A stretch of DNA of 64,000 nucleotides. Origin: Podarcis vaucheri (lineage: Eukaryota). Location of the stretch: NCBI GenBank assembly GCA_965113315.1, contig OZ220365.1. The stretch is one strand, 5' to 3'. The notes under the pieces are model-generated. The model had not been told where the DNA came from. It ran no database searches and was given only the letters and a program-made list of their open reading frames with translations. A program made the position numbers and the translations under genes. This document shows, piece by piece, positions 4,030 to 56,119 of this stretch. Each line of letters begins with the position of its first letter. The stretch's first letter is position 1.

Positions 4030-4077
4030 GTGGTGAAAGACCCTGTGGCGTACATGAACTAATTTGCATTAGAAAAG
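4030..4077 (+). CDS. SYT14: SYT14 coding exon 2 (N-terminal luminal part, GGERPCGVHELICIRK)
   Basis: Acceptor ...tctttctatgaacag| and donor AAAG|gtaagc; 48 nt, phase 1-1. The translation matches the mammalian SYT14 N-terminus as I recall it (GGERTCGVHELICIRK). Confidence 0.93.
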
Positions 4078-4611
4078 GTAAGCAACTTCTTTGAATACTT
4101 TTAATTATCTAAACATTTTTTAAAATAGTGGAACAGCCTAGAAGAGTTAAGGAAAGAGCAATCCAGACCCTTATGTTCAGCTCTCCTCAGCTCAGCTAGT
4201 CTCCCACTGGCTGCTGAATGTCCCCACCAGTGGGGGCAGCACACAGCCCTGGAATGGGGCATTCCAAGGCTGTGAAGAGGCTGATGCTGAGCTGGCCCAA
4301 GATCTGCTGCCTCACAGCTGTTGTATGTCATCATTGGACCTAGCTGTTGTGCTAGCTGGTAGGTGGCATAGCAATCAGGTCTGAATTGGGCCCAAGTCTC
4401 TTACTCTGCTGTTACTGTCATGAGTGTTAGGACTATGGATGCAGTGGTTGTTCCTTTACTCTGCAATCAGATTTCCAGGAAGTTGCTTCAAATTCAATCT
4501 AGTTGTGCTTAAGAATCATTTCTATATTTTTGCATGTAGTAAAGCCTATTTCAGGCCAATTATTCTCCTGCTGTCTTCATGTGAGAAATGCTTGCTACAG
4601 AGCAATTTGTA

Positions 4612-4700
4612 TAGCCACTGTAGTGTAGTGGACAGAATCTTAGATTTGGCCTGGGAAGACCTTGGTTCAAATCTCCTTCAGCGTGAAGTGCTGCTGGCAA
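4612..4700 (+). mobile_element. Degenerate tRNA-derived SINE head (Squam3/MIR-like)
   Basis: A-box-like TAGTGTAGTGG and B-box GGTTCAAATC. Confidence 0.45.
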
Positions 4701-6299
4701 AAATTTGGGTGAAAGATGACTGGTGGGCCATTTCAAAAGAATTGAAAGGCAAGACCTGGTCCAGAGATGGACAGTTTGTCACACCTCCCTTTAAGGAAGG
4801 ACGTAATACAAATGTGATAGAATAATAAAATAACTGAATTCCGAATTGTAGGGTCATCTAGTCCAACCCCCTTCAATGCAGGAATCTCAATGAATGAATG
4901 AAACCTTAATTAAGCTCTTTTAAGCATGCCAAAGCACTAAAGTTGTCCAGTGGAAATTATTTTATTCTTTTCTTCTTCTTCTTGCATGGCAAACTCCCAT
5001 TCAGTATCACAATCTGCATTTGAAATTTTCAGTTTCCAAAGAGGCTTGCAATGCAGCATGGAAAGTTGCTTTTCCAGAAACACAAGTCAAAAGTTTATTT
5101 TAATGCATAGCCATAGTTGTATGGTTCTTTGGATCCAGGCTATAGGCTATATGTGTCAAATCTTAATTGTACTGAAAATTATTTATTTTACTTATATAAT
5201 TCAATACTTATATAATTACTGTCAATAGATCTCAAAGCGGTTTACATTTAAAAAGTCCAAGTACATACGTATTCAGTAAGCCCATTCTCCTTTCAAGTTT
5301 AAATTAAAGTACTTGGAAAATATAACCTATTCAAAATACATGATTGATTTTGGTGCAATACATTTTACAGCTAACAATTTGAATATAAGTCTGGCATATC
5401 AGTAAAAGCAGCATAGTAACATCCCATAAATGCCTGAATAAATACAGGTTAATCTCAGGACGAAAGTGCTATGTCAGAGTAGTATCAGACAAACATGGAA
5501 TCATCACAAAACTTTGCAAAGAGGAATTTATTAGGAGTGAACCCTTCCTTATACACATTGGCTGCTAATTAATTTACACCATGATACTATTTGTGGGCTA
5601 CAAGCATTCAGATGGCATCTTATGCCTATCTCAGGTTCAGGCCTTTTAGTTTTCTGTTTTTCTTAGCAACAGAAGTGTGCTTATAGGAGCTGTTTTGCAA
5701 AATGTTTTGTAGAGATAACCCAATGCTCCACTGCACTGGGAACATTGTTCCTTTTGTTGGTCTGTCACCACCTCTGACACTTGAACGGGTTAAAGCTAAT
5801 CTGCAAAGAGGCCTAAATTCCATAAACCTGTGGGATATAGAGAGAGTTTTGAAACTATTCCAGACACTCCTGCCCCTGTTTAAAGAATTAAGACTGAATG
5901 GATGTGAGGAAACATATTTTTATCATTGATGTAAGTTGCCTTGAGCATTGAGAATAGGAAGTAAAATGGTTAAATAAATATTTTAAGCATTAGCAAAATA
6001 ACTTTGTCATCACCAGTTTGTTTTTTAGAAGGTATGAAACTAGATATGTTTTTTTCCCTTTAGTCTGTTATTATCATAATGCTTGTGTTTTGAAAGCCAT
6101 TTACTAGCTCTTTAATAAATCAAGATTATATAACCCAATGAAACTAGATAGGTACTTGGCTATGGTAGATTGAATTTCCATTGGTAACAATCAACTGATA
6201 TATTGTCTGGTGATTTCCAGCTTTAAAATGTTGCATAGTGTAGCTTTGTCCACTCATTTCCATATGGCATATTGTTTACTAGACAACTCTTAAAGAAGT

Positions 6300-6440
6300 A
6301 GTAGTAGTAATAGTAGTAGTAATAATAATAATAATAATAATAATTAATAATAATAATAATATTTCTATCCTGCCTATCTGACTGAGTTGCCCCAACCACT
6401 CTGGACAGATTCCAACACAGAATAAAAACACAACAGAACC
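6300..6440 (-). mobile_element. 3' end of an L2-type LINE with (TTA)n tail
   Basis: Reverse complement resembles the 3'UTR and tail at 43980-44070; (TAA)n run at 6320-6360. Confidence 0.6.
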
Positions 6441-6504
6441 AATTTTGTTATGTATTAATAGCAAAAAAGCCATATCCTCCAAAGTATCTTAACAAATGAA
6501 AGTA

Positions 6505-6723
6505 GGGTCACACCTCTAACCTTTCATGTCTGTCATGTCCCTGTTTAAATGCCCTTAAAGCAAACAAACAAACAAACAAACAAACCCCAAAACACAGTTG
6601 TAACCTTATGGCATAAACTGGGAATTGCTCTACCCACTTGAACATTTTGGTTACCCGCTTTTTAATCTCTCCCTGCCCGCCCCTAGTTCTACATAACTTT
6701 TTGAGATGGCATGCCCAAAACAA
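6505..6723 (-). mobile_element. Old CR1-like fragment interrupted by the MITE at 6726
   Basis: Minus-strand remnant (VLFWACHLKK...KKRVTKMFKWVEQ...) resembles the CR1 ORF2 C-terminus and continues after 7556. Confidence 0.5.
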
Positions 6724-6725
6724 TA

Positions 6726-7554
6726 CAGTGGTACTTTGGTTCTCAAACTTAATCCGTTCCAGAAGTCCGTTCCAAAACCAAAATGTTCCAAAACCAAGGC
6801 ACGCTTTCCCATAGAAAGCAATGCAGAACAGATTCACCTGTTCCAGACTTTTAAAAACAACCCCTGAAACAGCAATTTAACATGAATTTTACTAACTAAT
6901 GAGACTATTGGTCCATAAAATGAAAGCAATAATCAATGTAAGGTAAAGGTAAAGGGACCCCTGACCATTAGGTACAGTCACGGACGACTCTGGGGTTGTG
7001 GTGCTCATTTCACTTTATTGGCTGAGGGAGCTGGTGTACAGCTTCCGGGTCATGTGGCCAGCATGACTAAGCCGCTTCTGGCAAACCAGAGCAGCACACT
7101 GTATCAATGTACTGTACTATAAAATAAGTAAGACAGCATTGTAGATGATAAAAATTAAAATTATTTTTTTCTCTTTACCTGCACTGATGATAGTCATTGT
7201 TTGGATGGGGGACTTTTATCCATTTCCACAGTCACACAATCAAACAGTAAGTAGCTGAATTGGGTTCCACACAGTCACAAAAACAATTTAACCGAATACC
7301 CCTAAAAATAAAAAACGCAAAATAAATAGCAAAAACAAAAGCTCCAAACTTAATCTGCTTCGGAAGTCCGTTTGACTTCCAAAATGTTTGAAAACCAAGG
7401 CACAGCTTCTGATTGGTGCAGACGCCTCGGAAACAATAGCCAACAGCCGCATTGGACGTTTTGCTTCTGAAAAAAAACGTTAGAAAACTGGAACACTTAC
7501 TTCTGGGTTTTCGGCATTTGGGAACCAAGACATTTGAGAACCAAGGTACCACTG
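6726..7554. mobile_element. Tc1/mariner non-autonomous element containing a nested SINE
   Basis: TIRs CAGTGGTACTTTGGTTCTCAAA / TTTGAGAACCAAGGTACCACTG, TA TSD. Confidence 0.88.
6941..7102 (-). mobile_element. 5'-truncated Sauria SINE nested in the MITE
   Basis: (AAAGGT)n reverse tail, SINE body, and TSD ATCAATGTA at 6932-6940 and 7103-7111. Confidence 0.88.
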
Positions 7555-8129
7555 TACACAGTACTGTACCTCAAAGCATGGACACACCATATATTTGTAT
7601 TTTAATTATGTGATGCTGGAAGTTTTATTTTTGATTCCTTCCCTAATAATAGCTATCATGCAATTTACTTTTTTCACAGCTGCAGCATCCTGGTCAGTTG
7701 TTTTCATTGAGCTATCCACCACAACCTCGAGTTATTTGTTGGTCAGTCAGTGCCAGCTCAGACTCCAAAGTCGCCTTGTAAAGTTAGGATTTTTTTTACC
7801 ATGAAATGTATCACTTTGCTGTTACTTTCACTGAACCACACTTTATTTATTTAACAAGTCCCCCCCCCCCGTTTAAACAACAAAAACCTCTTTTGTTTTT
7901 AAGTTTTACATAAAGCAGTACAAAAATTCATTAAAACACCAATAAAAACAGTAGGCAAAGTAAAATGTATCAAAATATAAGTAAAAGTCTGTAGTTTTAC
8001 AACAAATAGATGTAATAAAATTCTATGTCTAGTAGGTTTACCTAAGCAAATACGTTTTTAGCAGTTACCAGAAACTACAGTGAGGTTTTCATCATTAGTT
8101 GGCACTTGTCAATGTGCCAGCTTTGCAGA

Positions 8130-8790
8130 TTGAACCATTTGAGTGGGTAAGATAATTTCGCCTTTTTATTGCCTATTCAGCCAGTTAGGAGAGCTCTTTA
8201 TGGAGTTTTTTTTTTTTGCTTTTTTTACCATTCTGAATAACTTGGTGTCATCAGCAAACTACCATCTTATTGCTTATGCCTAGCTCCAGATAATTAATGA
8301 ATAATTTAAAAAGTTCTTGTTCCAATACAGTTCCTTACCTCCCTCATTGTGAAAACCATCCATTTGTGCTCTGACCTCTTATCCACTAGCTTCTAAGTTT
8401 ACTTTGGTGAAGGAATTAGTCAAACACTTTTTGAAAGCAGAAGGATAAAATGTGCTTGTTGTCACTGTCAAGGAACTCTGAACAGAATAGTGAGGCAGAC
8501 TTATTTCTGCAGAAAGCACATGAGGTTTTTCCAGCAAAACTTGTTCATCTCAGCACTTGGTAATTTTATCTTTAACAATATTTTAAGTGTATTTAGAATA
8601 TACTTTAAGCTAACAAGTGTGTAATTTTTTGGCGCCCCCACATCCTTTTAAAAAAGTTATTATACTGGGCACTTTCCAGTTCTCAAGTATAGAGACTGAT
8701 CTTATTTCAAGATCAGCAATTTCACATTTGTGTTTTTAAAGAACTCGTGGATGGGATACCATTAGAATCTGCTAATTTTTAAGTTGTCAA
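8130..8790 (-). mobile_element. Degraded CR1-like RT fragment
   Basis: Minus strand reads TTTGCTGATGACACCAAG (FADDTK RT motif) near 8241-8258, with surrounding CR1-like remnants; boundaries approximate. Confidence 0.55.
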
Positions 8791-10648
8791 GGCTTTGAAA
8801 ACTAGCAATACAATTTTAAATTACCTTCCAATCTAAAGGTACTAAATGTAAGGAATGTAGGACAGATACGATCTGATCACAGTTGCTTAGAGCAGGAAGT
8901 AACTATGCTATTCTATTATGAACAATTTAGTTCATAAAGCAGCATTACTGGAGGCCCATATAGAAGGAAATAGCAGAAACTGAGCTTTGTGACCACCAGA
9001 GACCATTGGGGCAAAACCACCACAGGACAAATAAAATCACAATTAGCACATCAATCTCAAACTCAGTATTCAAAATTTGAAGATGATAATGACCCACTTC
9101 CTTGATCTGAACTTGTCAATGCAAAAGAAATTGAGGACATTAATATTGTGCCCTTCAGACCCTCATATTGCACCCTTCATACATTCCCCACCAGTCTTCC
9201 CAGCAGAGAAAAAAGTACTATGATGCAAAGGGGTAAGAGATATGTTATGTTTACCTATGGCACTCTTAAGTGTCTGCTACTGAATCACTTGGGTGTAGAA
9301 CAGCACATAGAGGAACACATTTAAATCTCTTTGGAACAACACATAATTGTTCTTCATTAGTGATTCAATCTCATCTTGTGGATATAGATTTTGTAGGTAT
9401 ATTTTATTCAAGTTGGCTCATCTTGAAGAGGCAGTTCATGTTCAGTCATTTCTGATGAGATGCAGCTGTAAGGTCCAGTGTAATCATAATGGCTAGCTGT
9501 CCTTGATCTAAACTCCTCAGCAGATCAGCCATGCCCATAAAAAGTTTGAGGTTACAGAATTAAAAAAATTGGGGATAGTAGGTCAGTGCACCTGGAATAC
9601 GGCTTGGAGGCACCTATTAAGGGGCTAAAAAGGTCAGATTTGTGTACTAGTTATTGCCATGACTATGGGCTAGTTAGGGCTGGAATAACTGCTGTTCCTT
9701 CTGAGGTGGTGATTCAGAAGTGGGAGAAAATTTGGTAAGGGTCATGCAGTGACCGCTCCCCATGTGTTTCCTCCTTGTACGTGCGGAAGAGCCACCTCTG
9801 GCAAATTATTGTGTGTCCACTTGGGTCTTAGACCAACTTACCTGGGAGTAAGTCCCACTGAACTTGATGACATCATAACTGAAGTTACATATATGAGTGC
9901 ATAATGCCCTTCCTCCCAATAAGACCACTAAGTTCAGGGTCTAAAATTACCTAGCTGCACCACTGGCACAGTTCCTTCCTGAAATAGACCATTCCTTAAA
10001 TTGGGGCTTATGACCTCTCTCTGTTCCCTTCCTCTCCCCCTTTTCCAAGCCTAAAAAGCCTTACTTTATAGTTTGTGTACATCAAATGAATTTTATATGG
10101 ACTAGAGAAAATGATTTTAACTACAATCCTATAACTCTCACCAGTAAGCAAATACCAAGGAAATAAATGGGTTTACTCAGAACTGAGTAGACATGTAGAG
10201 AATTGTGCTGCGTGAAGGCAGTCTTGATTGCGGTGCACACTTAGCTGAAGTAAGCCTCACTGAATACAATAAAACTTACTTTGAGGTAAAAATGCATAAG
10301 ATTGTGCTGTAAATTCAGACTTCCGCTTGTTTTGTGTTTATTTAACAGTAACCTTATTATTTTTTAAAAAATATTATGAACTCCTAATTTATTTTCATTG
10401 AATTATATTTTTAGTTTTTATCCCATCACTATATCATATACTTTATAATACATATTTCAAAATGTATATTAAGGTTTTGTGAAAGTCTTAATTGCTTGAT
10501 GGACTCAAATTTTATATTACAAAAAGGGCTAATTTTTGTTTAAATCTTTGCTAAACTTACGGACTTTGAAGCAAAAAAGTAATTCAATTTCTTCCCCTCC
10601 CCCTTTTCATCTAGTTTATAGACCATCTGCTGGGTGTAGTTAGAGCAC

Positions 10649-10697
10649 ATGAAAGTGCGAAGGATGGTAGAGAACGAGACAAGCAGCTTTGACATAG
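10649..10697 (+). CDS. Candidate alternative 5' exon of SYT14 (MKVRRMVENETSSFDI, in frame with the TM exon)
   Basis: Polypyrimidine acceptor at about 10589-10614; ATGs at 10649 and 10664 (aggATGG); phase-1 donor TAG|GTAACA giving ...FDI-V-SPEAVG. Confidence 0.4.
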
Positions 10698-11372
10698 GTA
10701 ACATGTCTCAAAAGAAACAAAGCAAAGTAATCAACATTTCCCATTGAATTTGTGGTTCAGATATATTAAAAGAGTAAAGATGACTAGGATTTCTTAGTTT
10801 TAAACTATGGATAAAATATTTTCTGTGAAACCAAAATTATATAGCGTAAAGTAAGTTAGATGCTGACTGTATCGGAATATTGCAGTAAACCTGCTGTTTC
10901 CGTAGCACAAATAGGAGCACCAAACCACAGTCCCTGGATTAGAGTTATGTCTGAACTAGCAACTGTGGTTTGATTTGCTTCACATGAATTACAATCTAAA
11001 ACCAAAATTCGTTTTTGGCTTTCTGAGCATGACTTGTTCAAGAAAAACAAACCACCATCTTTGGGTCGGATGTAATGCTAAGTCAGGGATAATGGTTTAT
11101 TGCTTTTGTTTGTACTAGAGCAGGATCAGATTTGGAATGATCTGTGTCTTATGTGCAAAGAGGACCAATGTGTGTATAACTATAATATAAAAATTTTGTT
11201 TTTGGAAATATAATGAATAATTACAATACTTAGTGCTTCAGCAAAATTTGAGGGTAATGTTTTTAAAAGCATTGAACTTCACGGAGCTGAATATAATATA
11301 AAAAGTTCAACAGTGGAAAAAAAGCTTGCTCCTTTCTTGAAGGTAAAGGAATATGTCAGAGACACTTTAGTA

Positions 11373-11604
11373 CAGTAGTACCTTGGTTGTTGAACTTAAT
11401 CCGTTCTGGGAGTCCATTTGACTCCCGAAACGGTTTGAAAACCAAGGTGCGGCTTCCGATTGGCTGCAGGAGCTTCCTGCACCCAATTGGAATCTATGGA
11501 AGCCGCGTTGGACGTTCAGCTTCCAAAAAAGCTTGCAAACTGGAACGGTATTTGGGAGCTGATATGTTCGACAACTAAGCCGTTTGACAACCAAGGTACC
11601 ACTG
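11373..11604. mobile_element. Tc1/mariner MITE (short relative of 6726-7554)
   Basis: TIRs CAGTAGTACCTTGGTTGT / ACAACCAAGGTACCACTG, TA TSD. Confidence 0.85.
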
Positions 11605-12791
11605 TAACAGCATTTCAACTTGGAGGAGCCCTTTAAGCCTGTCATAATTTGTGGTGTGGCTTGTTTGCTTCCATTTTGCGGCTATTTTCATAAAACCTGT
11701 AATTTGTCCCGCTAATGTGGTATGGGAATTGCTTCGTTGGGTCACATTGAATATAAGTAACATTTGTTTACAGGAGTCTTCTGAAATCAGTGGATAATGT
11801 GGTTACTTCTCACACTAGCACTAGTATTGTGGTGTTGATGTAGGTGTAATCATATAACCAAACTCTTCCATGTGGTTCCTAGAAATAGACACTATTGGTG
11901 TGGCATGTGAGTCATCTATGCAGAATCTCTCTCACATTTCAGTGGTTGGTTACATATAAATTGGCCCTGAGTTATGAATGAGGCTGAATGTAATCTAGAA
12001 TGCATCAGACAAATACCTTAGAGATGTTGAATAATGTAGAGCATGACTGATCCTGCTCAATGCAGGTATTCCATTCCCCAGGGTTCTGTGGTTAAGCAGT
12101 AGCAATTAAATGTTTCTTTAAATATTTTCATTGTCTTGTGGTCACAGTTTATTTGTTTAGCTAGAGATTTAGGTTGGACGTAATCAATAATCTGTCATTC
12201 AAGTTATTTTACTTAATTTATGTGACGTAATTATGTGCATTTGCATCTCACTAAAATAAATACAATAAATTCATGTAATTGCATCAGCTTGCTGATTTCT
12301 AGAGAGATAATTTACTATTTATTGTAATCTGTTGATCATAAATAAGGATAATCATAACAAAAAAGGACAAATCCTAAATTTAGAAATGATGAGCCATTAG
12401 ATGAGCTTGTTGCATGGATCAGTGCTCATTACTTTTTATAAATCTAAAATAATGTTTATCTTCATAAAACAGGAAAGTATGATCCATCTTAAATGAAACA
12501 CTTTGAAGGCCTGTTCGTTTCAGTTGGAGTTAAGCACTTGCTCAGTTCCCTCCCTTTGAAATTAATAGGATTTAAATATGTTGAGCTGTATCTGGATTCC
12601 ACCCAATATTTGAGTAAGCAATCAAAGTCACTATCTGTGGTACTTATTTAGTGGGAACAGAATATTCAAAGTGTAGGTTTTGCACTTTGTAATCTAGTTG
12701 ACCTATAGTGCCATCTAATGGCTAATTTATGAAATACGTTAAAAAATTTCCCATGAAAACCATGGTCTAATGAATACTGTGCAAAATAATA

Positions 12792-13033
12792 CAGTGGTAC
12801 CTTGGATTACATACACTTCAGATTACATACACTTCAGGTTACAGACTCCGCTAACCCAGAAATATTACCTCGGGTTAAGAACTTTGCTTCAGGATGAGAA
12901 CAGAAATCGTGCTCTGGCAGCGCGGCGGCAGCAGGAGGTCCCATTAGCTAAAGTGGTGCTTCTGGTTAAGAACAGTTTCAGGTTAAGAACGGACCTCCAG
13001 AACGAATTAAGTACTTAACCCGAGGTACCACTG
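12792..13033. mobile_element. Tc1/mariner MITE
   Basis: TIRs CAGTGGTACCT / AGGTACCACTG, TA TSD; near-identical to 14293-14520. Confidence 0.88.
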
Positions 13034-13932
13034 TACTCTATATAGGTTGCTTTTGGCCATCATAGAAACCATTGAGATCAGTGGACTTAAGCTAGTAAAG
13101 ACAAGCTTATTTCTGTTCATTCTGGGATGGCTGCTCTGAGGATGAGTTAAGCAGATAAAGCCTATTTTTCATTGCAAATTATATTTAATAGATTTTCACA
13201 TCTGGTTTCCTGAGCCTGAGTGAGCACAGAAGTGAAAAATACTTTTGGCTGTGTGTACACTGAAATTACAACTGCAGTGTAATGGTTTGAGTTTTCACCT
13301 GCTGTCTCAGAACTAATACTTTGTAAGAATTTGAGAATAGTCTTTTTAAAATGAGCAGTATTAATTGATAATAATCTGAAGCTGCCAATAATTATTAAAA
13401 ACTTTATTTTTTATATGGGACAGTGGATGTCACTACTAATGTGAACTACTAAACTATGGTTGTCATAAAGAAGATCTCCCTGCCATGTTTTTAAACATGT
13501 GTCTTAAACGTATAAGCCCAGATTACCCATGAGTTCAGAAGGCTGCAGAAATTGCAGTAGCCCCATACTTCATCTCTCACAGGTTGAGGTGTGGGCTGAC
13601 ATACAGTGTGTCAGTAAGCCAGCATACTAGGATAGTTGGCATATGTGCCTTCACCTGCTGTCACCACTGCCTGGTCAGGTAATGACTTGATTAAAAGAAG
13701 AGAAGGGAGCTGAAGTGGGGAGTTGATGGGGAGGGTTCTTTGGGGACCAAAGAGGGTTGACTGGAAGGAGGAATATTTTCTGAACCTTGGTTTATTTCTG
13801 AATCAATTAAGGCAGTGGCCCACTTGCACATCTCTGCTGTGAACTTCTGTTTGTCTGCTTGCTGTGAGCAAGTAACATAAGCTTCTAGGAGTATGCCTCT
13901 TCCATTGAAACAGACTGCTTTCTTGTGCCATA

Positions 13933-14004
13933 AAGGTAAAGGTAAAGGTACCCCTGCCCGTACGGGCCAGTCGTGTCCGACTCTGGAGTTGCGTGCTCAT
14001 CTCA
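13933..14004 (-). mobile_element. Very short 3' fragment of a Sauria SINE
   Basis: (AAAGGT)3 tail; 12-bp TSD TCTTGTGCCATA at 13921-13932 and 14005-14016. Confidence 0.85.
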
Positions 14005-14292
14005 TCTTGTGCCATAGTTTCAGTGATATCTGTGCTACCCCTTTAACACTGGGGCTGGTCTCTGGGATAACATTATTGCAGATAATGATTCTGTCTCTGT
14101 CTTAAATGGTCACTGGCCTATTAAGCCAAGAAAGCAAATAAAGAAGTACACATATTGCCAATAGTGACTTTGTTTTTTTGTTGCGGCATGTATCCAGTGG
14201 GTAAATGGAGAAAAGGTTGGTTAAATACCCTTTGATTAATGAGGATCTTTAGAAGCAGCTGAAATAAGAACTTTTTAGTACTCCTTTTTATA

Positions 14293-14520
14293 CAGTGGTA
14301 CCTCGGGTTACATACGCTTCAGGTTACATGCACTTCAGGTTACAGACTCCGCTAAGCCAGAAATAGTACCTCGGGTTAAGAACTTTGCTTCAGGATGAGA
14401 ACAGAAATCGTTCTCCGGTGGCGCGGAGGCCCCATTAGCTAAAGTGGTGCTTCAGGTTAGGAACAGTTTCAGGTTAAGAACCTCCAGAACGAATTATGTT
14501 CTTAACCCAAGGTACCACTG
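14293..14520. mobile_element. Tc1/mariner MITE
   Basis: Same family as 12792-13033; TIRs and TA TSD intact. Confidence 0.88.
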
Positions 14521-17500
14521 TATGCCTATTTTAAACTTTTAAAATTCTATACTATTGTGAAAGAAATGAAGTTATTTAGTTATAATGAATTTATTATTAT
14601 ATAAATTAAATACCAATATTGTATTTGATACCTTAACACTGTAAAAACAGCATAACTTTTAGTACTAAGTAGCATTCAACTAAATAATTCCACAAGCGGA
14701 ATGAGTTCCATTTGTGCAAAGGGACTTAACTCCTCCTTACATCCCATGCCATTCCCAAATCTGCTCTCGAGTGCTGGGGTAACCCCCAAAACAGATTTAG
14801 GGAATACACAGGTGAGAAGAGAGAGGGTGAACATTCCCTTGTGCAAGGAGAATCCTTGCTTTCATGGAACACTCCCCTTAGTGCTACTTTGAATACAACC
14901 CGTTGAATTGTGTTTTTAAAAATAAGTGTATGTTCATTGACCATCATGGGGTTTCAGATCAAGTACCAGTTTGGCTTGTACACAAGGCAGATACTATTGC
15001 ATTGACCACATTAATAATTAAACTGTCTTGACATGCAGTAAGATAAATATATAGTTTCATACACTATTGGAGCAATTGAACAGTCAACACTTTATGTAAG
15101 TAAAAAAAGAAGTTTATAATTTTTTTTAAAGCAATTACCCTTCCTTAAAATTAAAGGTATTTGTTTTGGTTTAATGCTTGTGATACTGCTACTCTTCAAA
15201 AATACTTTCCCAGTATGTTTGAAATTACTTTTGGAAAGAGATAAAAACAAATTTAAATATACAACATATGTTGATTTTTGTGACAAAGAAAACAAAAGTC
15301 CTAATATAATGACATTTAATTTATGGTAAGCTGCCAAATACTAATTTTGTTAGCGTAATTTATAACCTTTGAATTCATTGCTAGTATTTACAGTACATTA
15401 CAATATTAATTTCAGTGAATTTCTTTCACCTGTTATTGAAATATAATAATGTTCCTTGAATTACTTTAGTTCATTAGATAGAATTTACATTCTTTTTGTC
15501 ATTGTGCATCTGCTATGTTGAATAAAACTGTTCAGCCTCATAAAAACAGTTCTAAGATAGTCTTTACAAAATCTGTTGTATTTTGAAAGTTGTAATACTT
15601 TTCAAGAAGCAATTAATATTATTGTGGGTCATTAATTAGGATATAACATTAGCAATATTTTTAATGGAGTGCATCCTCTGCATAATTGTGTTAAATTCCT
15701 TATATTTAATTTTATGAGAGTTACTATTACTATCTGTCCGTAAAATAATTGTGCTTAATAGTTAATTTAAGAGAATTAAATGCTTAATGTTAAATAGTGG
15801 AATGCAAACAGCATAGTATACTGTACTGTACATAATCCCTCATGGGGTTATAGAAATGCTGGTTACAGGTTTAAGAAAACTATCAGAATAGTCATGTCTT
15901 TCACATGTGATAAAATCAGGCTGCTTATAGTCCTAAAGATGGGTTCATGTATGCAAATTGATACAAGATAGATAATTCCAAATACTTGCATTTGGTGTTA
16001 AGGTAGATGAATAATTAATTAGTCTAGCTGAAGCTAAGGTATCATTCTTTCGTAAGGTATTAATTGCTGTATTCTCTTAACCTCAGAAAATGACCTTAGA
16101 TCTATAATTGATATTATCATATTAAACACTAAATTTAACATTAAGCTAATAAGCAAACCAGCTATGCTCTGTGGCTGAAAAAAGTGTTATCCTATTGGGA
16201 CAGTGCCCTTGCAGAAGAACTATACAGGCAGGAGTAACTTCTGCAATAAAATGGGGCTAGTTTTGTTTTAATTGATTATTTCTGTGCTGTGGCATTATAG
16301 TCCGTCAAAGTAAATAGGGGCAAATGAAACACTGCATGCTTGAAGGCATTGTCCACAACTTGATAAAAAGTCTATTGAAACAGCAAGTATTTTTCATAAA
16401 TTTGATGCAGCATTTAAAGCAAGGCATTGTTAACAATTTAGAGATGAAAACAGGGCTGCATGCCAGTGGCAGGCATAGCTAAAGTGAATGTAGAAGTACT
16501 CAAGTTGGTGTGGCCACCCCAGATTCACAGTCTCTTGCAGTCACAGACTTGCAGACATACAAAAATGCATGCAAATCCCTCTATAGTGGTTGCTCTGTAC
16601 TACAAGCACTAATCCGTAATGAAACTTCATACAATAAAATTAGAATTGTATGTCTAGACCCTTGGAAGACTAAACGTTAGAACTTCAGAGGGTTTTGGAT
16701 CGCCACTAGTCAATCTGGAGGCAAGCAAAGAGAACAGGAAGCTGGAGTGAGAAAGCAGTGGCTTCAAAACCAGGTCCAGGTTACTGACAGGTGTGGGATC
16801 CAATCAACACATTAAACATGCACTAGCTGTCAATTTGTTACCTGACCAAGTCAAAGATTTTACTATATATCTGTAGTGGACATTAGAAAGCATGTGTTGA
16901 ATTCATTCCCAGTAACAAGTTCCACATAGATATCCATGTGTGGTAACTGTTTATTTGCAGCAAAAAAAAAAAAAAATCCTGGTTATAATCCAAAAGGATG
17001 TGATTTTAAACTTTGATTTAAACATTATGTTCATTAATGGGTCACATTGCTTTTATGAAATACAAAAGTAAACACAATTCATAAAAGTAGACATAAAATT
17101 GCTGTCGTATTCAGCCAAAGCCATGTAGATTTCACAATTGGCAGGATGGGGATATATACACACATTGGTCTTGACAGTAGATCTGTGATTGATTACTTGA
17201 TTGAAAGTAGGCTGAAAAATTATATTGTAATGAAAATGATGGCAATTAATATTTATTTATTAAGGGTTTTTATTTTATTCTTTTAACTCTACAAGGCAAA
17301 TATATAAACAATATGATAATATAATAAATGTTAGTAAATAACTTAAAGAGCAAATAAATGAAACAAGGTAAAAGAGTTAAATAAAACATTCAAAGCACCA
17401 GCAGTTGAATTCTATTCTATGAACTCTGTTGAGCCTAAAATAAAACCATGTTGGCCTGATGCCTAAAAACTAACAAAAAAGAAGCAAAGCAACTTCCCTG

Positions 17501-17715
17501 GGTATGGAGTTCTACAGACTTGTTACCACCACTGAAAAGGCAGTGTGCCCATGTAACCACTTGAATGAAGGGGAATATGAAACTAGGCCTCTTGTTTCAT
17601 CTTCTCCCTATTATGTACTTGCATGGAAGTTTGGGTCTGGGTGTGATTTACTAACAATCTAGTTTAATGAAATGTGTTGGCTTTCCATTCTGGTCATTGT
17701 TTGTGTTTTTTCTAG

Positions 17716-17880
17716 TATCTCCTGAGGCAGTTGGATTTCTGTCAGCAGTTGGACTGTTTATTATCCTGTTGTTGATTCTTTTTCTATATATTAACAAGAA
17801 GATGTGTTTTGAGAATGTTGGAGGTTTCCCAGACCTCAATTCACGATACAATGCCAGAAAAAATTCACAGGACAAACTTT
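17716..17880 (+). CDS. SYT14: SYT14 exon 3, transmembrane segment (VSPEAVGFLSAVGLFIILLLILFLYINKKMCFENVGGFPDLNSRYNARKNSQDKL)
   Basis: Acceptor ttgtgttttttctag|, donor CTTT|gtaagt; 165 nt, phase 1-1. Hydrophobic helix followed by KK; lies inside ORF 17667..17936. Confidence 0.96.
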
Positions 17881-18902
17881 GTAAGTATCAAATTCTATGG
17901 TCTATGGCTTTGAAAGACTGCAAACCCCTGGTGTAATATCATATGAATAATGTTATGTAGGCATAAAAGTTTGACTTGAATAAAATAAATATCTGATATA
18001 GTCCAAAATACTTTTACTAATCCATCTGTAGTGCTTAGTCAGAATTTAATGGCTTTGGGGTCTGTTGAATGTTTTGTAAGGGGTTGACATTTTAGATAGT
18101 GGAAAGAAACAAATGGTTTTATATTTCCCAAATATGCTTAATAAGAATAATTAGATCACAGCTTTTATATACCAGGAAACCATATTTTCTCAATTATGAG
18201 GGACAAAATCTTAGATATTTCTGAAGTGGTAGGACAAACCTCTTTTATTTGCAGTGTATCATTCATTAAAAGTTAGAGGGAAAACACACAATAATCATAT
18301 TTGAACTGAATTATATTCCATGACCGCAGTTCAACATAGAATTTAGACTGCATAAACTTGTTGATTTTACTGGGGTTGTATGCTTATATTTGTACAGAAT
18401 TTGTACAGACTGTTGGCCATGGGTACAGAATTATTGTGGTCTGGGTGAATACAATGTTAAGAATGTAGTCCAGTGTTAAGAATTATGTTTTATGGTTTCT
18501 TAATAACCGATACAATGTGGGGTATATGCTAGTGTTTTGAAACAATGTAGTATATCTGTCTTTATAATATATTATTTAAATACGTTTAAACTTTTTCTTT
18601 GCAGGTGTAGAGTAAATTCAACAATTTACATATAATATTTAAAATGTCTGGTTATGTTATACAATACAACATACAACACAACATAAAAAACAGAATAGAT
18701 TTTTATCAATTGATTTTGGCTTTGTGTAGTAGAAAACACTTGCTCCTATTTATTGCTTTTAAGGTAACAGAATTCAGAGAATGACTAATCTGCAGAGTCC
18801 ACAATTTAAAGGATAGGGTTTAGGATACTTGAAAAAAATACAATAGCAGTGCATTTGAGGAATAACATATTTTCAAAGCAATAATGTACTAACAATCAAA
18901 AC

Positions 18903-19587
18903 ATGGCATTTTTCAAAAATTTTCAACAAAATCTGAGCCTTCCTTCTATGTCTTCTCTGGTTGACACACTCAGTAATGCTGTAGATGATCTAACCAGTGC
19001 TGTTGGAGATGTCAGCTATACAGTAGCTGACTCAGTTACAGAACAGGTAACAAGTATGATCAACAGCCTTCGGACAGATGATACTGCTACCGCCCAAGAA
19101 GATAAATCTATAGTAGATAAAGAGGAAAATAAAGAGAAAGAAGACTTGAAAAATGTTACCTTTCCAAAAGATACTAGGCAGAACTGCAAGACATATAGAA
19201 CAGATGAGTCCCTTAATAAAGAACTAAATCAAGAATTGCATGCTGAGGTAGAACAAAATGAGGGCCCGTTGCATAAAAAAGCAAAACAAAAATCACCAGG
19301 ACTTGACTTCAAAAACACCAGAGAAGTGCACAGTTTTGATTCCAGGAATTCAGAAAAAAATGAAGAGCAAACTCCAAAATTGCAGAAGTTAAAGTCTAAA
19401 AAAGCTCATGGGGTTCATGATGTAAAAGAAAAGAAATGCAAACCATTTTCGGATGGCCACAGACAGTCTGTAACAAAGCAGGAAGAAAATGCACCATCTA
19501 TTCTTTCAAAAGAAAGTAAAAAGGAAAAGGCTAAGCAATCAGAATGTTTTTCAAAAGAAGTGAGTAGTAAGAAGACACCAGAAAAAG
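18903..19587 (+). CDS. SYT14: Candidate alternative first coding exon of SYT14 (TM-less isoform, MAFFKNFQQNLSLPSMSSLVDTLSNAVDD...KKTPEK)
   Basis: 228 open codons in an AT-rich intron; strong Kozak aaacATGG; strong donor AAG|GTGAGG in phase 1 joining exon 4 in frame (G+AC = Asp); no transposon similarity noticed. Confidence 0.75.
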
Positions 19588-20755
19588 GTGAGGTGTCTTA
19601 TATCATACTTTATCCATGTGGCCTTTCCTGGATCTTTTACTACATACTTCTTTTCCCAACTGCTTTTTTAGATTTCATTCATAATGATCTTTAAAACAGT
19701 CTCCTTAGTAGAAACTCTTTGTGATATGTATATTATTTTCTCTGAAATTTGCTTTATCTAATTTTATTCATACTCCTTGAAAACTGGTTACATATTTTCT
19801 TTCCTGATTAATGCTACTAACTTTTGAATAGTGATTAATCAACTTTTTTAAAAAAAATATCTTTCTGTTCCCTTAAATTTTGCTACATTTTTCAACGGTT
19901 TGCACTGGATAACAAGAATATTTTGTACATGATTCTTGAATTCTATATTTATATGTGTTTATTTGCCTGGTGCTTCAGGACATAGTGTGCAGATGTTGTT
20001 TTATTATAAGAAATAATATCTGGGAACCTAACATATTATAAGCTACATATAGCTTTTCATGAGGGGTAATACTAAAAGTGAGAAAACTAACATACAAATC
20101 ATGAAGTAGTAATGCAACAAGTCTAATATATATATATCTAAAATAAATAAATATAATTGAAAATATATTTTCTCTAAAATCAGTCAATGCATAAATTATA
20201 AAATAGGCTATTTCACATCTCTAATAATGGAAGGAAAACAAACATTTAAAGCCATTGCTAGCGAAACCATGAAGGTATCCCAAACTTTGCAGTTATACAC
20301 AAAAACAAATGCTGACATAAATGTATCTATCTAACAAGAAGGATAAACCCCCTATATCAAGTTACAAAAGAGCTTTCTGAATCCACTAAGGGTGATAGGG
20401 CAAAGAGGGAAGACAAAACAAAATGAAATGCATGGGGGGGGGGACTTCCCCATGGGCAGCAGTAAAAAGCATGTATTTAGGAAACAACCTTGGTTCATCC
20501 CTTTAAAAGCCTGATTATTTCAGGCTAAAATAAATATTTCCAGGAATAACAGAAACAAAAAATAATTATGTTAGGGATAATACATTTATTGTGAAGTTTG
20601 AGCTCTTGCCTAAACTGGGTTAAAATGTGAACTATATTACCTTCTGTTTAGGAAAAAAAATGTATTAACAATTAAATGTTTACCCATTATAATTTTAGCA
20701 CTCTCCTTTATGGTGCCATCTGTTATCATTCCCCCCTCCTTTTTTTCCAAAATAG

Positions 20756-20974
20756 ACAACTCATACATAAATAAAGATCAGCATGGTTCATCATCTGAAA
20801 GTGAAGATGAGGCACTGGGTAAATATCACGAAGCCTTATCCAGAACACAAAGTTCAAGGCCACCAGCAGGCGATAACAGACAACAGAAAAACTATATTTG
20901 GGAAACCAGACAAAAATATAGCCCTCTGTCTGCAGAGTATGATGGGTACAGTAGTGAAGCCTCAATAGATGAAG
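20756..20974 (+). CDS. SYT14: SYT14 exon 4, linker (YNSYINKDQHGSSSESEDEALGKYHEALSRTQ...SSEASIDE)
   Basis: Polypyrimidine tract then aatag|, donor GAAG|gtatga; 219 nt, phase 1-1. Recognisable SYT14 sequence inside ORF 20710..21093. Confidence 0.96.
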
Positions 20975-21308
20975 GTATGACATTATTTACAATGGTTTTT
21001 ACTTCATCTTATTTCACATTCATCAAAAAACACCATAGGATAAAGATACAGCGGTTGCAAGATATTATCTGTAAAGGTGCCAGTAAAATCTAAAACCCTG
21101 ATTGAAATAGTTAGGGATTTAGGGGGAAAGACTGGATTTCTTTTATTGATCTTTTACCTTCTGAGTGCTTAGAGCTTTCCAAGCATTTCACCTATATTCA
21201 TATGGGAAACGTTTAACAAAAAGCGTAGCAGTTTACAATTTATTGTTATGTATGGAAAAGTTTGTAAACATTTCCTGATAATAAACTGCCTTTGGTATAT
21301 GGTGGTTT

Positions 21309-24520: not shown

Positions 24521-24660
24521 CAGGGAAGGGGAACCTGTGGCCTCCAGATATTTTGTGTACTCCAACTCCCACCAGTCCCAGCCAGCATAGCCAAATGACA
24601 GGGGTGATGGGACTTGCAACATAGCATAACATCTGGAGGGCCAGGAGTTTCTCATCCCTG
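24521..24660. mobile_element. Short palindromic hAT-like MITE
   Basis: CAGGGA...GGCCTCCAGAT / ATCTGGAGGGCC...TCCCTG; related to 50720-50858 and 52795-52930. Confidence 0.6.
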
Positions 24661-24703
24661 TTATCTTCCCCACTCTTTATGGTTCTAGCAACATACCTCT
24701 TGA

Positions 24704-26337: not shown

Positions 26338-27399
26338 TACTAGAAGCATTGGTACATATTCTCCAAAATGTATGAACATATTTAGGCTATTTCTAAATTA
26401 TTTCCGTTTAAGAAACTTTTGAAATATTACTACAATATCACAAATAAATTTACTTTGAATGCAGGAAAACATAATGAATGACGTTCACAGTTGCATCAGA
26501 TTTGTGATGGAGAAAACTCTGCGCAGCATAGGACTATAGTGGCTGAGAAAACAGGAACCAGCAGGCCATAAAGGAGGCTAACAAGCACTACCAGCCTGTA
26601 TAATTTTTAAAGAACTTTTAAAAAAAGTTTCTATCTCAGATTAGAAGTGATGGACATCAAGGTACATTTTAAACGTTCAACAGAAATAATAAAGGGGATA
26701 TGCTTGCATTGTGAAAATAAGACAAGATGTGGTGAATTGCATTCACATCTGCTATAGTGCATGGGGCAGCAGCAGTTCACAGCCCTGCTCCTATTTTATC
26801 ATTTCATACTACTACCTGTCAGGAGCATCAGACTCCTACTTTTTTGTATCAGTTTATTATTTTTAAATTTGTTTTTTAATTTCAAGTAACAAACATACCC
26901 ATACAAAGAAAACAGAGCATAGTATTTGTACAGAAAAGAAAAGAAAAATAGTGGATGCTGGTTGTAGTTTTAGATGTTCCAAGAAAGGCAATCAAATTAA
27001 AGTGTCTCTCCATAAGGTTCCATGAGGCAATGGAGGGTGAAAAGCAGATTTGATTGTCTTAAAAGTATTTAAAAGGATACAATGTTGTATAGATGGTGTG
27101 AGTCTTTCCCCACCAATCAATACTCCGTTTGTGAAATGATTGATTTGTCCATATGCACAATGTCCCATTGGTAGCCAGCATCCCAGTGTTGATGAAAACT
27201 GCAGTTCCCACCTTGGAAACCCTTGTGCTGAGTTTGAAATCAGCACAGATGTACCCATCGCACCAAAAACCGGATGAAGTCACACCAAAGTCACATTTCA
27301 GACCAACATCTTGATTCAAAATGGTGGCTGGATGCCCAACACCAATGAAAACCAGTTCCCCAGTCTCAGAAACCCTTGTTCCAAGTTTGACAACAGTAT

Positions 27400-29080: not shown

Positions 29081-29083
<3 letters not shown>

Positions 29084-35000: not shown

Positions 35001-35311
35001 AGCTGAGGCAAGGAGAATTTGAGGTTTAGGAACTGCCAGATCCAGGACACTGTTGGAGCAGAAGGAGTGTCCTCCCCTTATCTTTTCCTTGTATGTGGCC
35101 TTTAAAAAATGTTTCAGTGTAATAGAAAATAAGTATCCCATCCCAGATTGGCATACTACCCACATTCCAGAATGTGTTGAAATGACATCTGATCAAGATG
35201 CAGCAGCAGAATGCCACCTTTTTTTCCTTGACTTCTAAGGAGGCATTGATGGTGAACCTTTCTATGGAGGTTGGGAGAAGGTTTCCAAGGGCAGGATTTC
35301 CCCTCATTGGT

Positions 35312-35647
35312 GTTGTTGTTTAGTCGTGTCCGACTCTTCGTGACCCCATGGACCAGAGCACGCCAGGCACTCCTGTCTTCCACTGCCTCCTGCAGTTTGG
35401 TCAAACTCATGCTGGGAGCTTCAAGAACACTGTCCAACCATCTCGTCCTCTGTCGTCCCCTTCTCCTTGTGCCCCCAATCTTTCCCAACATCAGGGTCTT
35501 TTCCAGGGAGTCTTCTCTTCTCATGAGGTGGCCAAAGTATTGGAGTCTCAGCTTCAGGATCTGTCCTTCCAGTGAGCACTCAGGGCTGATTTCCTTCAGA
35601 ATGGATAGGTTTGATCTTCTTGCAGTCCATGGGACTATCAAGAGACT
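35312..35647 (-). mobile_element. BovB LINE 3' fragment
   Basis: ORF 35156..35641 (VPWTARRSNLSILKEISPECSLEG...); (CAA)n tail; imperfect TSD CTCATTGGT/CTCATAGGT. Confidence 0.93.
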
Positions 35648-36271
35648 CTCATAGGTAGAAAAGTTAATTTTACTAGTTCTGCTATTATCCTATTTTGAAG
35701 AATGTTCTACTGTTTTAATATTTTGGTTTTGATGCACAGTTGTTTTAATTGATTGTTTTAATTGTTCTCTGCTCCAGAACCCTTTGGGGTTAACAAGTGT
35801 GAGCTACAAACAAAATATCTCTAATAAGAAGAAATTTTAAAAATTGCATTGTTGAAAAATATGCACATATTAAAAATAAGAAAATACAAAGAATAAATAT
35901 TTAGCACAACAAACTTATATAAATGGACATACATAAGCATAATAAAAGAACATTGCTGTTTTAATATAATTATCATAAAGAGGAACAGAATTGTCAGCTC
36001 TTTTACTTAAAATATAATTTTAAATTACTCGATGCATGATGCACCAAGTAATGGTGGGGCCTGGGGCCTTCCAGATAAGGATGGAAACCAACTTCCATCA
36101 GCCCCAGCCAGCATGATCCTTGGCCACAGATGGTGGGAGCTCTAACCCAAGATTACAAATTTCCTACCCCGTCATAAAAAAATTCTTTTTTATCCAGGTT
36201 TGTCCTTATAACTAATTTGATACACTTTTTGCCTTGCACAGAATTATAAAAAAATAGGTATGATACATGTG

Positions 36272-40745: not shown

Positions 40746-41097
40746 GGGATGCGGGTGGTGCTGTGGGTTAAACCACAGAGCCTAGGGCTTCCTGATCAGA
40801 AGGTCGGTGGTTCAAATCCTTGCAACGGGGTGAGCTTCTGTTGCTCGGTCCCTGCTCCTGCCAACCTAGCAGTTCGAAAGCACGCCAAAGTGCAAGTAGA
40901 TAAATAGGTATCGCTCCAGCGAGAAGGTAAACAGCATTTCCGTGCACTGCTCTGGTTCGCCAGAAAGTGGCTTAGCCATGCTGGCCACATGACCCAGAAG
41001 CTGTACGCCGGCTCCCTCGGCCCATAAGGCGAGATGAGCACCACAACCCCAAAGTCGTCTGCAACTGGACCTAACAGTCAGGGGTCCCTTTCCCTTT
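40746..41097 (+). mobile_element. Full-length Sauria SINE
   Basis: GGGATGCGGGTGGTGCTGTGGG A-box head, B-box GGTTCAAATCC, CCCTTT tail, flanking TACTCAGGT repeats. Confidence 0.92.
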
Positions 41098-43666: not shown

Positions 43667-43678
43667 AGAAATTAAGAT

Positions 43679-50858: not shown

Positions 50859-50899
50859 GCTGCATTGGGTTAAAATAAATAGTGCTCAGCTTTAAGTTA

Positions 50900-51283: not shown

Positions 51284-51449
51284 ATGGGATTGGTTGTAAC
51301 ATGTTGCTTGCTGTGGAATGACAGCAGAGAAAACAATGGAGGGGGGGAGATATTTGAGGGGAGCAGGCATGTTAAAGGAGGCTTTGGAAACATTGAATCT
51401 AGGCACTCCTGCGTCTCCAATGCTAGAACAGGGGGAACAGATACCCCAG
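51284..51449 (+). CDS. Candidate alternative first coding exon of SYT14 (MGLVVTCCLLWNDSRENNGGG...GTDTP)
   Basis: Kozak atcATGG, 55 codons, phase-1 donor CAG|GTGTGC in frame with exon 5; upstream CpG-enriched non-repetitive region. The donor is only moderately strong. Confidence 0.45.
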
Positions 51450-52794: not shown

Positions 52795-52930
52795 CAGGCT
52801 TCCTCAAACTCAGCCCTCCAGATATTTTTGGCCTACAACTCCCATGATTCCTAGCTAGCAGGACCAGTGGTCAGGGATGATGGGAATTGTAGTCTCAAAA
52901 CATCTGGAGGGCTGAGTTTGAGAAAGCCTG
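52795..52930. mobile_element. Palindromic hAT MITE
   Basis: CAGGCTTCCTCAAACTCAGCCCTCCAGAT / ATCTGGAGGGCTGAGTTTGAGAAAGCCTG; 8-bp TSD AGCCAAAG/CGCCAAAG. Confidence 0.85.
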
Positions 52931-55850
52931 CGCCAAAGAGTTCATTTCTCAGCTGAGCTGATGGGGTGAGCCTCTCCTTTCTCAACCTTAGTAGCACCAA
53001 AGGGTTTCATCTTAGCAGCACCAAAGGGTTTCACCAGTAGATGAAAACCCAAGGGAGAGGAGGATGTGAATGGCAACTGTGAATTTTCACTGCATTATAA
53101 TGCGTTTGAATGCACGTTCCCTGAGTTCAGCTTGCTTTCAGAATTTAGGAATGTCCAAAGTAGCAATTTATTTGGAAATGAAATCAAAACGATTTGTCTT
53201 CCTCCCAAACAACCCAGTAATCTACTCGTAAGGTATATTTATTTTCTCTCTGCACAAGTTACCCTTCATGTTTAATATATGTTGTTTCCATTTTGGTAGG
53301 CAGGTGGTATAAGCCGTGATTCCTCTGTAGCAGGATGCTGAGACAACCCACTTCATTGTGAAATAACAATGTTTGCATACGCTCGTCTAATCTTTCTGTT
53401 TTAAAAGGGGGGGAAAGCGCCCCAGGTCTTCATTAAACATTTATTATTTATCTTCTATACTCTCTTTGCGTTGCAGGGTTATTTGGCGAGATGAACTTTT
53501 CCCAGCTCAAAAATATTAAAACATGAAAATTCCATTTGCGCTCATTGGAGTAGCATAGCAGAAACCTCTGTGGGTATTTAATCATTCAAAATAAAGGGTT
53601 TTATTTAATTTTTAAACATGTATTTCATTTTATGTTTTATTTAAATTGTTTTAACATTTGCCGAGAAGCCCCTGAAGTACTAAAACTTTTGAAACTTAGG
53701 TTAGCTTAAAAATAAACATGAGTAATCCTGCATGTGGAGGAATGACAGGAGAGAGGAAGGGGGAGAGAGAGATGCAAGTATGCTGCTGAGAAAGAAACCA
53801 GCCATGATGATTACAAAGCATTACTTGCAAAAATTATCAAGCTATACAAGGAAGCCGGAATTGGGTTGCTCATTGATAACAATAGGCCTTTTTTCTGATT
53901 ATTATGAATATTTAAAGGAGCTCATGAGAAGCTCAAAGCTAATGTGCAAAATCAGATTTTGGTAGAGCAGTTCTCTGGCTAGGGATTTTGAACCTCAGAG
54001 ATAAGGCAGCAGTTTCCAGATGTTAATGAGGCAGACAGTGTAGGCATGGTTTGGGGAAACCAAATATAGAACAAGAAGAGTTGAGATGATGAAGACCTGT
54101 GGGAAACTGCAAGGCACGCAATGCAAAAGAACTTTACTAGCAAATGCTGTATTTTTGTGAGTAAGTAACATGTAAGGCAAGGGACCAAACTTGCAATTGA
54201 AACGAAAAAGTTGAACATTTCAAAGGAGAGGGGAAAAAGAAGGAATAAGATGGAGCTTACATCTGAAACAGTAATGGTTGCAGTTAATATGGATTCAATT
54301 TGTTTCCTTCTACAGGAAATTTGCAACCCACTTAAATTGGTTAGTAGCATTAATCACTTCTCTGCTTCTTTCCTGACTCCAAAATGCACCTTTCTTTTCT
54401 TCATTATCTTATCCAGCTTTTAGAAGCAGCCCATATACTCATACACTTTACTTCATATAAATCCTTGTTAATGGAAAACACTAATTTGTTTCTGTTTTGT
54501 CTTATGGGGGGGGGGCAAACGCCGTGTGTTCATAGGTTTTACTTGACTATTTCTTCTGTATGTACTTTCCATCTGTCTTGAAATATATTAGGGCTGTCAT
54601 TCTTCTTCATTTCTTAAAGTTATTTAATTAATTGTTTGAGGTTTCCAGTGCAATCTTATACATACCATAATCCCTGCTGACTTCAATGGGACTTACTACC
54701 AGGTAAGTGGGTATAAGATTGCAGCCTTCATTAAGTAATTAATCAATTTTATAGTTGCATATGAATAAGACACTTGTTTTTTGGGGGGTGGGGAGTGCCT
54801 CCTTGTTTTCAGACAAGGCATGTGCCACAGAACACACAATGTATTCCCTCCTGTGTCATAGAAAAAGAAGTTGGAATCTTCTTTTAAGAGGTGCCATATG
54901 TCCAGAAGAGTAGATTATGGCAAATTTTCTTTTAAAAAGCTCAACAACTTTGCCAACTGTTGTGTCTGGACTTTCACTTTTTAAAATATGGCAACCCGAT
55001 TCTAATATGCTGTTGACCCTGTGCCTTTTTTATATGTGTTAATATTTAACACAATGTATTTCCCTATAAATTGGGGGCACCTTTTGATCAGTTAAAAAGC
55101 TTTTAAACTGATAACTGTTTAATCAGCTAAATGGCGCAGCCCCCTAATAATACTTAAATTATATTACAGTACTTGCAAAGTTAAAATAAAGTTCCATTTA
55201 AAAGAACTTGGCTATATGTTTTGGAAAACGTAGCCGCAATGTTTGGCACACTTGATTGTGTTTGCAGGATCTGGACTGGGACTCAATACAGAATCAGAAC
55301 TGTAGGTGAGCTCTTAGACTCAGAACCAGGAGATGAACTCAGCTATAGCTGTCAAGCAAGCACATGCCTCATAGTGACAGACTCACGGTTATGATTCAAG
55401 TATCAAGCTAGGAAAGTTAGGCAAGAAAAGAAGCTGCAAGGATTGTCAGAATCTTATCAAGGACAGAAGATCACACCTAGGAAGTACTTTTTATGAGAAG
55501 GCACGGGTGGCAATTTGAGGTAGAATTCAACCCGGCGCTGCATTGTTGGATAGCAGATGAGGCAAAAACTGTGAGGATATTGAAGTTGGGTCGTATTGGA
55601 AGTTCAGGATAATCAGGGCAGGGCAAAAGCATATCTGGATCCATGGAGCAGGAGTGGTAAGGGAGCATACCTAGAGATGAGGGATGCAGTTCCTTCTTCA
55701 TGCACCAAGCTCAGCACATAACTCTTTGGATCAGGGCCACCATGTTTGAATTCCTCGTAAAGCACCACCTTGCTAAACAAATGATGTTTTTCTCTTCCAG
55801 CCACATTTCTTACGGAATGAAAGCCTATGATAACTGTTATTTATTCCTAG

Positions 55851-56119
55851 CAAACTGCATTCAGAGAATGAGACAAACACCTCCTCTTGATGAATTGCAG
55901 CCCCCACCGTACCAAGATGATAGCGGCTCCCCGCATCTCTCATGCACGCCCTCCGAAGTTGGTGACAGCAAATGTGAATTCTCTCAGTGTAGCAACAGTC
56001 CGAGATGCTCATATAAATGCCCAAGTGAAGGGAGCACTGGGCATGAAATAGAAAGCTTCCATAACAAAGGATATGAAGAAGATGTACCCAGTGACAGCAC
56101 TGCAGTCCTTAGCCCAGAG
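55851..56119 (+). CDS. SYT14: SYT14 exon 5, linker (ANCIQRMRQTPPLDELQPPPYQDD...DSTAVLSPE)
   Basis: Acceptor ttattcctag|, donor GAG|gtaaac; 269 nt, phase 1-0. In frame with exon 4 (G+CA = Ala). Confidence 0.96.

Follow-up and report, generated by a model that had tools for sequence, protein, structure and literature searches.

Alternative N-terminal exons at the SYT14 locus of a wall lizard, including a predicted transmembrane-less leader

Many synaptotagmin (Syt) genes that encode a transmembrane (TM) segment also express TM-less variants, as described by Craxton 2010 (PMC2823689). For SYT16, additional files 30-32 of that survey give a TM-bearing variant (var1) and a variant with a long TM-less leader (var2), from frog to mouse, and both forms are also given for Ciona Syt16 (var1/var2). 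Human SYT14 variants 2, 4, 6 and 7 are described there as TM-less, with their start Met located within the TM exon. The function of SYT14 is stated to be unknown, and a mutation in it has been linked to spinocerebellar ataxia (PMC13069148, PMC8164606). Here, we analysed a 64,000-nucleotide stretch of Podarcis vaucheri DNA (NCBI GenBank assembly GCA_965113315.1, contig OZ220365.1), referred to below as the window, which holds the 5' half of SYT14 from a wall-lizard-like lacertid and is 99% identical to Podarcis muralis RefSeq models. An initial annotation of the window assumed that the different synaptotagmin anchor types are reached only in separate paralogues, a premise that the two SYT16 forms contradict. 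Since an anchor switch at one synaptotagmin locus is already published, the gain here is no new principle but one under-studied isoform, SYT14 with a TM-less leader.

We consider it highly probable that the linker-C2A-C2B body of SYT14 has three N-terminal entry points, one of which, the exon at 18903, gives an ancient TM-less form, and that two further candidate starts, at 51284 and 54121, are ordinary intron. The canonical exons 1 and 2 and a squamate exon at 10649 would both feed the TM exon, and the 18903 exon would bypass it, likely producing a peripheral, TM-less protein. The two alternative exons would be driven by their own intronic promoters. All four candidate start exons had been put forward in the initial annotation; the two at 10649 and 18903, which have contig joins and proteins behind them, are true alternative N-terminal exons, and the proposal is in this respect real but mostly known, as both are already annotated by pipelines. 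The exons concerned are the following.

18903..19587, + strand: alternative N-terminal exon, a TM-less leader of 228 codons plus 1 nt, which joins exon 4 or exon 5 (contig joins, RefSeq models, homologues)
18903..19082, + strand: conserved first 60 residues of the leader, a short helix followed by a long acidic, Ser/Thr-rich predicted amphipathic helix (alignment, hydrophobic moment, AlphaFold)
10649..10697 (counted from the ATG), + strand: alternative first coding exon, which joins the TM exon and encodes a luminal tip of 16 residues whose Asn9 begins an N-x-T sequon (contig joins in runs X2 and X14; nine stored proteins)
4030..4077, + strand: SYT14 exon 2, the canonical Cys-bearing luminal tip (48 nt, phase 1-1, AG/GT ends)
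17716..17880, + strand: exon 3, the transmembrane helix (165 nt, phase 1-1; top hydropathy window 3.01)
20756..20974, + strand: exon 4, a skippable acidic linker (219 nt, phase 1-1, AG/GT ends)
55851..56119, + strand: exon 5, the first exon common to every C2-bearing form (phase 1-0)
58334..58783, + strand: C2A exon (bounds by tblastn; Pfam C2, E 1e-6)

The 228-residue frame of the leader shares 99% identity with the beginning of P. muralis RefSeq SYT14 isoforms X1 and X5, and isoform X1, mapped back, falls on window exons at 18903, 20756, 55851 and 58334, with the C2B exons just downstream. The leader matched 184 proteins, the best 120 of which were all sauropsid (lizards, snakes, turtles, crocodile and birds) and nearly all named SYT14, and the first 75 residues of a turtle leader form matched 215 proteins. 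A search of 1.84 billion representative proteins with leader residues 1-66 returned 36 matches; one of them, P0261, a compositional match to a repeat protein, was discarded. Among 20 distant matches that were looked up, 12 were named: bamboo shark, Mantella frog, manatee, marmot, black rhinoceros and seven teleosts. Judged by sequence, homologues of the leader span shark to mammals. Conservation is confined to the N terminus, with a mean identity of 0.66-0.75 in residues 1-60 versus 0.15-0.32 in residues 61-220 (62 rows). Compared with most other sauropsids, lacertids have a spacer that is ~60-90 residues shorter (727 residues against ~770-815), and its length is thus loosely constrained.

Evidence for splicing was sought in eight of 24 sequencing runs, none of which is recorded as RNA. 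Window positions 15000-21300 were compared with Logan contigs of runs X2, X7, X13 and X14, which represent four studies of related lizards, and positions 3900-21100 with raw reads of runs X21, X23 and X24 (6-12% of each read) and with contigs of run X1. Spliced joins came from three of the four studies (runs X2, X7 and X14). The leader exon is followed by exon 4 in a run X14 contig (join 19587-20756) and by exon 5 in a run X7 contig (join 19587-55851), and ahead of the TM exon, runs X2 and X14 from two studies show the 3' end of exon 10649 (join 10697-17716). The TM exon is followed by exon 4 in contigs of runs X2 and X14 (join 17880-20756). The canonical join 4077-17716 was seen in none of runs X2, X7, X13, X14, X1, X21, X23 and X24, and its basis is annotation: exon 2 lies between exon 1 and the TM exon in 37 of the 39 stored proteins that have it.

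Several observations count against the three-entry reading. The spliced evidence consists entirely of Logan contigs from related lizards, with one contig per join and an RNA status that is guessed. Run X13 gave three unspliced pieces and no join over 15000-21300, and the repeat-swamped raw reads of runs X21, X23 and X24 gave zero cover on any SYT14 exon in 3900-21100. Neither 10649 nor 18903 lies inside a CpG island. Contigs cannot show transcription starts: that of run X14 begins inside the 18903 exon, and in run X7 a splice leads into it from the TM exon, through the following extension. Among the rows listed, the run X1 contigs over 3900-21100 are unspliced pieces only; like the raw reads, they weigh neither for nor against splicing.

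18605..18902, + strand: extension of the 18903 exon on its 5' side, opening at acceptor 18605 (join 17880-18605, one run X7 contig)

The 18903 exon might accordingly be, in the main, an internal poison exon that the TM exon feeds through 18605 and that brings in a stop and sends the transcript to decay, the long leader being rarely made. The join 17880-18605 in run X7 fits this idea, as do the stop that the extension reaches three codons after the TM exon, the four ATGs upstream of 18903 and the intron-retaining contigs across the 18903 region in runs X1 and X2. It is nevertheless improbable as the main role, because selection at the protein level is needed to keep 228 codons open and in phase with exon 4 and to hold a motif of 60 residues from shark to mammals, and the ATG at 18903 has a strong start context. 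The two roles can coexist, and the 17880-18605 product of run X7 may be minor and decay-bound. Two models of the ab initio type, P0045 and P0021, read in frame from the TM exon into the leader and were not taken as evidence.

If the leader is translated from 18903, as we favour, the protein has no TM-like window: maximum hydropathy in the leader isoforms is 1.80, versus 3.01 for the TM exon. The hydrophobic moment of the conserved part reaches 0.49, and residues 14-58 include 15 Ser/Thr among 45, with six Asp/Glu and one basic residue. Most likely, the conserved part binds membranes peripherally as a helix, and the spacer behind it is disordered; the predicted amphipathic helix would bind membranes reversibly, and the charged spacer of 160-300 residues would set the reach to the C2 domains. 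In amphipathic lipid packing sensor (ALPS) motifs the polar face consists of Ser, Thr and Gly without charges, and the lipid-binding helix of perilipin 4 carries both charges (PMC6164224). The leader helix shares with perilipin 4 and the ALPS of GMAP-210 a Ser/Thr-rich polar face, small hydrophobic residues and an N-terminal site before a long spacer, a likeness of chemistry only; it differs from ALPS in being acidic (six Asp/Glu in 45), so its polar face is not charge-free. AlphaFold places helices at residues 3-10 and 16-62 at low confidence (predicted local distance difference test, pLDDT, 57), which tempers the helical assignment, and the full-length model is too poor (pLDDT 45) to show any packing of the helix on the C2 domains.

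The hydrophobic residues of the helix recur with a seven-residue period, a feature also expected if it were a protein-binding or self-association coil and the leader form a cytosolic adaptor. This is the main rival to membrane binding, and we regard it as possible but rather doubtful. The excess of acidic over basic residues in 14-58 (six versus one) disfavours anionic membranes, and the model shows one long helix, both in keeping with a coil; on the other hand, the hydrophobic face is built of small Val, Ala and Leu residues, the Ser/Thr-rich polar face (15/45) resembles those of ALPS and perilipin 4 (PMC6164224), and the leader helix has no solved-structure match. PDB sequence and fold searches with the helix gave nothing meaningful, a search of the ESM Atlas with residues 1-66 of P0015 gave no usable match, and no Pfam family was matched by the leader or by the 51284 segment.

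The position of the leader was compared with that in SYT16 of the same genome, where the TM exon is at L022:8072-8251, a TM-less leader exon at L021:6897-7386 (C1:10136897-10137386, with two candidate phase-1 donors spaced by 27 nt) and the linker exon at L019:4048, and where all joins are phase 1. The SYT14 leader likewise sits downstream of the TM exon and upstream of the acidic linker exon, to which it is joined in phase 1. SYT14, SYT16 and Ciona Syt16 each place TM exon, intronic leader and acidic linker in this order at a single locus, with phase-1 joins and a helix-then-spacer plan, as checked for SYT16 of this genome, and the layouts of SYT14 and SYT16 look nearly alike. Because SYT16 and Ciona Syt16 place a TM-less leader at the same spot, the layout was likely inherited from a Syt14/16 ancestor, and both leaders may plausibly descend from one exon.

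The leader sequences themselves argue less clearly. The SYT14 leader helix is longer than that of SYT16, and the match between them is not significant: its 6.2 bits were reached by 155 of 2000 pattern-preserving shuffles. The SYT16 leader open reading frame ranked 9 of 3259 with the first SYT14 profile and was not among the best 16 rows with a deeper one. These results weaken the case for descent and leave it quite conceivable that the two leaders arose separately at the same intron, the more so as the Ciona leader is unlike either and any new first exon in that intron must be phase 1. Set against convergence are an intron, a phase and a plan (amphipathic helix ahead of a charged spacer) that the paralogues have in common, and the rarity with which the score was equalled by plain shuffles (1/2000) or genomic windows (1/1620). 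While favouring a shared origin of the layout, we give separate origin of the leaders considerable weight.

The leader is absent from the SYT14 alignment and from the readable part of the vertebrate table of Craxton 2010 (PMC2823689), and no literature on the isoform was found in open-licence PMC and bioRxiv. The human TM-less variants of SYT14 are not its counterpart, as they have no long leader exon, and the lizard TM exon lacks the Met at which they start. The same exons and joins for 10649, 18903 and an exon at 26465 described below are present in RefSeq/Ensembl models (XP_028580571, isoform X1, XP_028580575, isoform X5, and XP_028580577, isoform X7, of P. muralis; XP_058437933 of marmot; CAI5771043 of P. 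lilfordi), which are automated and state no function, and acceptor 18605 is not visible in the protein records. The leader form is thus a concrete, testable second form of SYT14, one that those parts of the curated 2010 catalogue do not list for this gene.

The 10649 exon has a narrower distribution. The stored set comprises 283 proteins, 18 of them lacertid, with 15 of the 26 members of one cluster and a part of the RefSeq isoforms. Nine of the 283 carry the exon, from six squamate genera (Podarcis, Rhineura, Anolis, Pogona, Elgaria and Phrynosoma); it is in none of the stored bird, turtle or mammal proteins, though these were gathered for other queries. The tip replaces exons 1 and 2 and with them both luminal Cys residues of exon 2. 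Entry from exon 2 through the acceptor-like sites at 10615 or 10622 would stop the canonical frame, so the exon codes only as a first coding exon. In all nine proteins the N and T of the sequon are invariant, with E, M, L or V between them, and Asn9 lies on the luminal side, 12 residues ahead of the TM stretch. Asn9 is therefore predicted to be glycosylated; compared with the glycosylated luminal tip of SYT1, the 10649 tip has a conserved luminal N-x-T sequon and a glycan that is predicted only. The functional weight of such a glycan is uncertain because glycosylation is reported to be dispensable for SYT1 sorting (PMC3471705).

The initial annotation had read the shared splice phase as a possible sign of a plug-and-play system. 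Its readings of the sequence hold: exons 2, 3 and 4 are symmetric, exon 5 opens in phase 1, and all four ATG segments are open to a phase-1 GT, at 10697, 19587, 51449 and 54160. The shared phase is no evidence of a special system, however, because a coding exon must have this phase whenever it is spliced to a phase-1 acceptor. Chance suffices to supply such segments: intron 2 holds 21 phase-1 donors of this kind, and intron 4 has 70 ATG segments of at least 13 codons that run to a phase-1 donor-like GT, nine of which, including the following two, have at least two Cys in the first 12 residues.

51284..51449, + strand: candidate acylated start, unsupported and likely due to chance (single copy in the genome)
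54121..54160, + strand: candidate acylated start, unsupported and likely due to chance (single copy in the genome)

None of the 283 stored proteins matches either segment, and neither occurs in the 220 whose sequence ahead of exon 5 is visible; both are likely ordinary intron, although a lineage-specific exon is conceivable, given the 18 lacertid proteins and the incomplete RefSeq isoforms of that set. A Cys-cluster acylated N terminus corresponds to the SYT17-like type of anchor, and no conserved, transcribed Cys-cluster exon of that kind was found in the stored set. The full proposal of five interchangeable anchors, with acylated starts at 51284 and 54121 and skipping of exon 3, is accordingly very improbable. 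The canonical TM form, the short sequon tip with TM and the long TM-less leader are supported. The acylated form drew no support, nine of the 70 chance segments being as good and no protein matching, and skipping of exon 3 only occurs in none of the 39 stored exon-2 proteins. What speaks for the wider scheme is that the phases fit, that Ciona and sea urchin Syt16 have Cys-bearing TM-less leaders, and that one Ensembl model (P0145) joins exon 2 to exon 5, thereby skipping exons 3 and 4 together.

One exon had been missed in the initial annotation, as had the acceptor at 18605.

26465..26728 (3' end approximate), + strand: likely alternative last exon, found after exon 4 in runs X2 and X14

Exon 4 is followed by this exon in contigs of the two runs, which belong to two studies. 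The frame stops after five codons, AATAAA occurs at 26688, and the run X14 contig would end at ~26728 if contiguous. The P. lilfordi models P0189 and P0179 end in the same way. The exon is likely an alternative last exon that yields a 149-residue TM protein without C2 domains, although it may instead be a poison cassette that uses the donor-like site at 26661. In runs X2 and X14 it occurs together with the 10649 start, a pairing that hints at a tissue-specific short transcript.

The remaining interest of the locus lies in an ancient TM-less SYT14 isoform of predicted function and in this C2-less stub. More speculatively, and with little confidence, the leader form could be an overlooked isoform of all jawed vertebrates, a soluble two-ended tether whose helix grips vesicles or lipid droplets, whose disordered spacer sets the distance and whose C2 domains, being calcium-independent, engage a partner or a second membrane. 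The 26465 end would then give the anchor-only half, tissue-specific starts and ends would supply anchor-only, C2-with-helix and full products, and the leader form, rather than the TM form, could be what matters in SYT14 ataxia.

Assignment of the gene to SYT14 follows from 99-100% identity to named SYT14 models and from tandem C2 domains after a linker, with a Pfam C2 match; SYT16 is a separate locus on contig C1, with 82% in C2B. Exon 1, whose 3' end is in phase 1, lies ~2 kb upstream of the window (L002) and inside a CpG island. A long in-frame upstream extension of this exon is present in RefSeq X3 models (L002:7657-7994), and a second small first exon, 450 nt downstream of exon 1 (L002:8434-8469), is used by the P. 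raffonei X7 model. The linker is variable in length too, exon 4 being skipped both after the TM exon (P0150, P0161, P0164, P0165 and P0208) and after the 18903 leader (run X7 and many bird and lizard models). A 9-residue microexon between exons 4 and 5 of Anolis and Rhineura models was sought in the lizard intron 4 and not found. The C2B exons lie 2-7 kb past the end of the window (L008), and a small one among them (L008:5760-5828) is present in some models and absent from others (727 versus 708 residues); C2B variants have been described by Craxton 2010 (PMC2823689).

The introns contain broken reverse-transcriptase fragments at 24630-25550, 35159-35689, 60465-61045 and 1278-1928, and several repeats of 250-350 nt (e.g., 40746-41097 and 56283-56626), as is ordinary for a lizard. 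The former are presumably of the long interspersed nuclear element (LINE) type and the latter like short interspersed nuclear elements (SINE-like).

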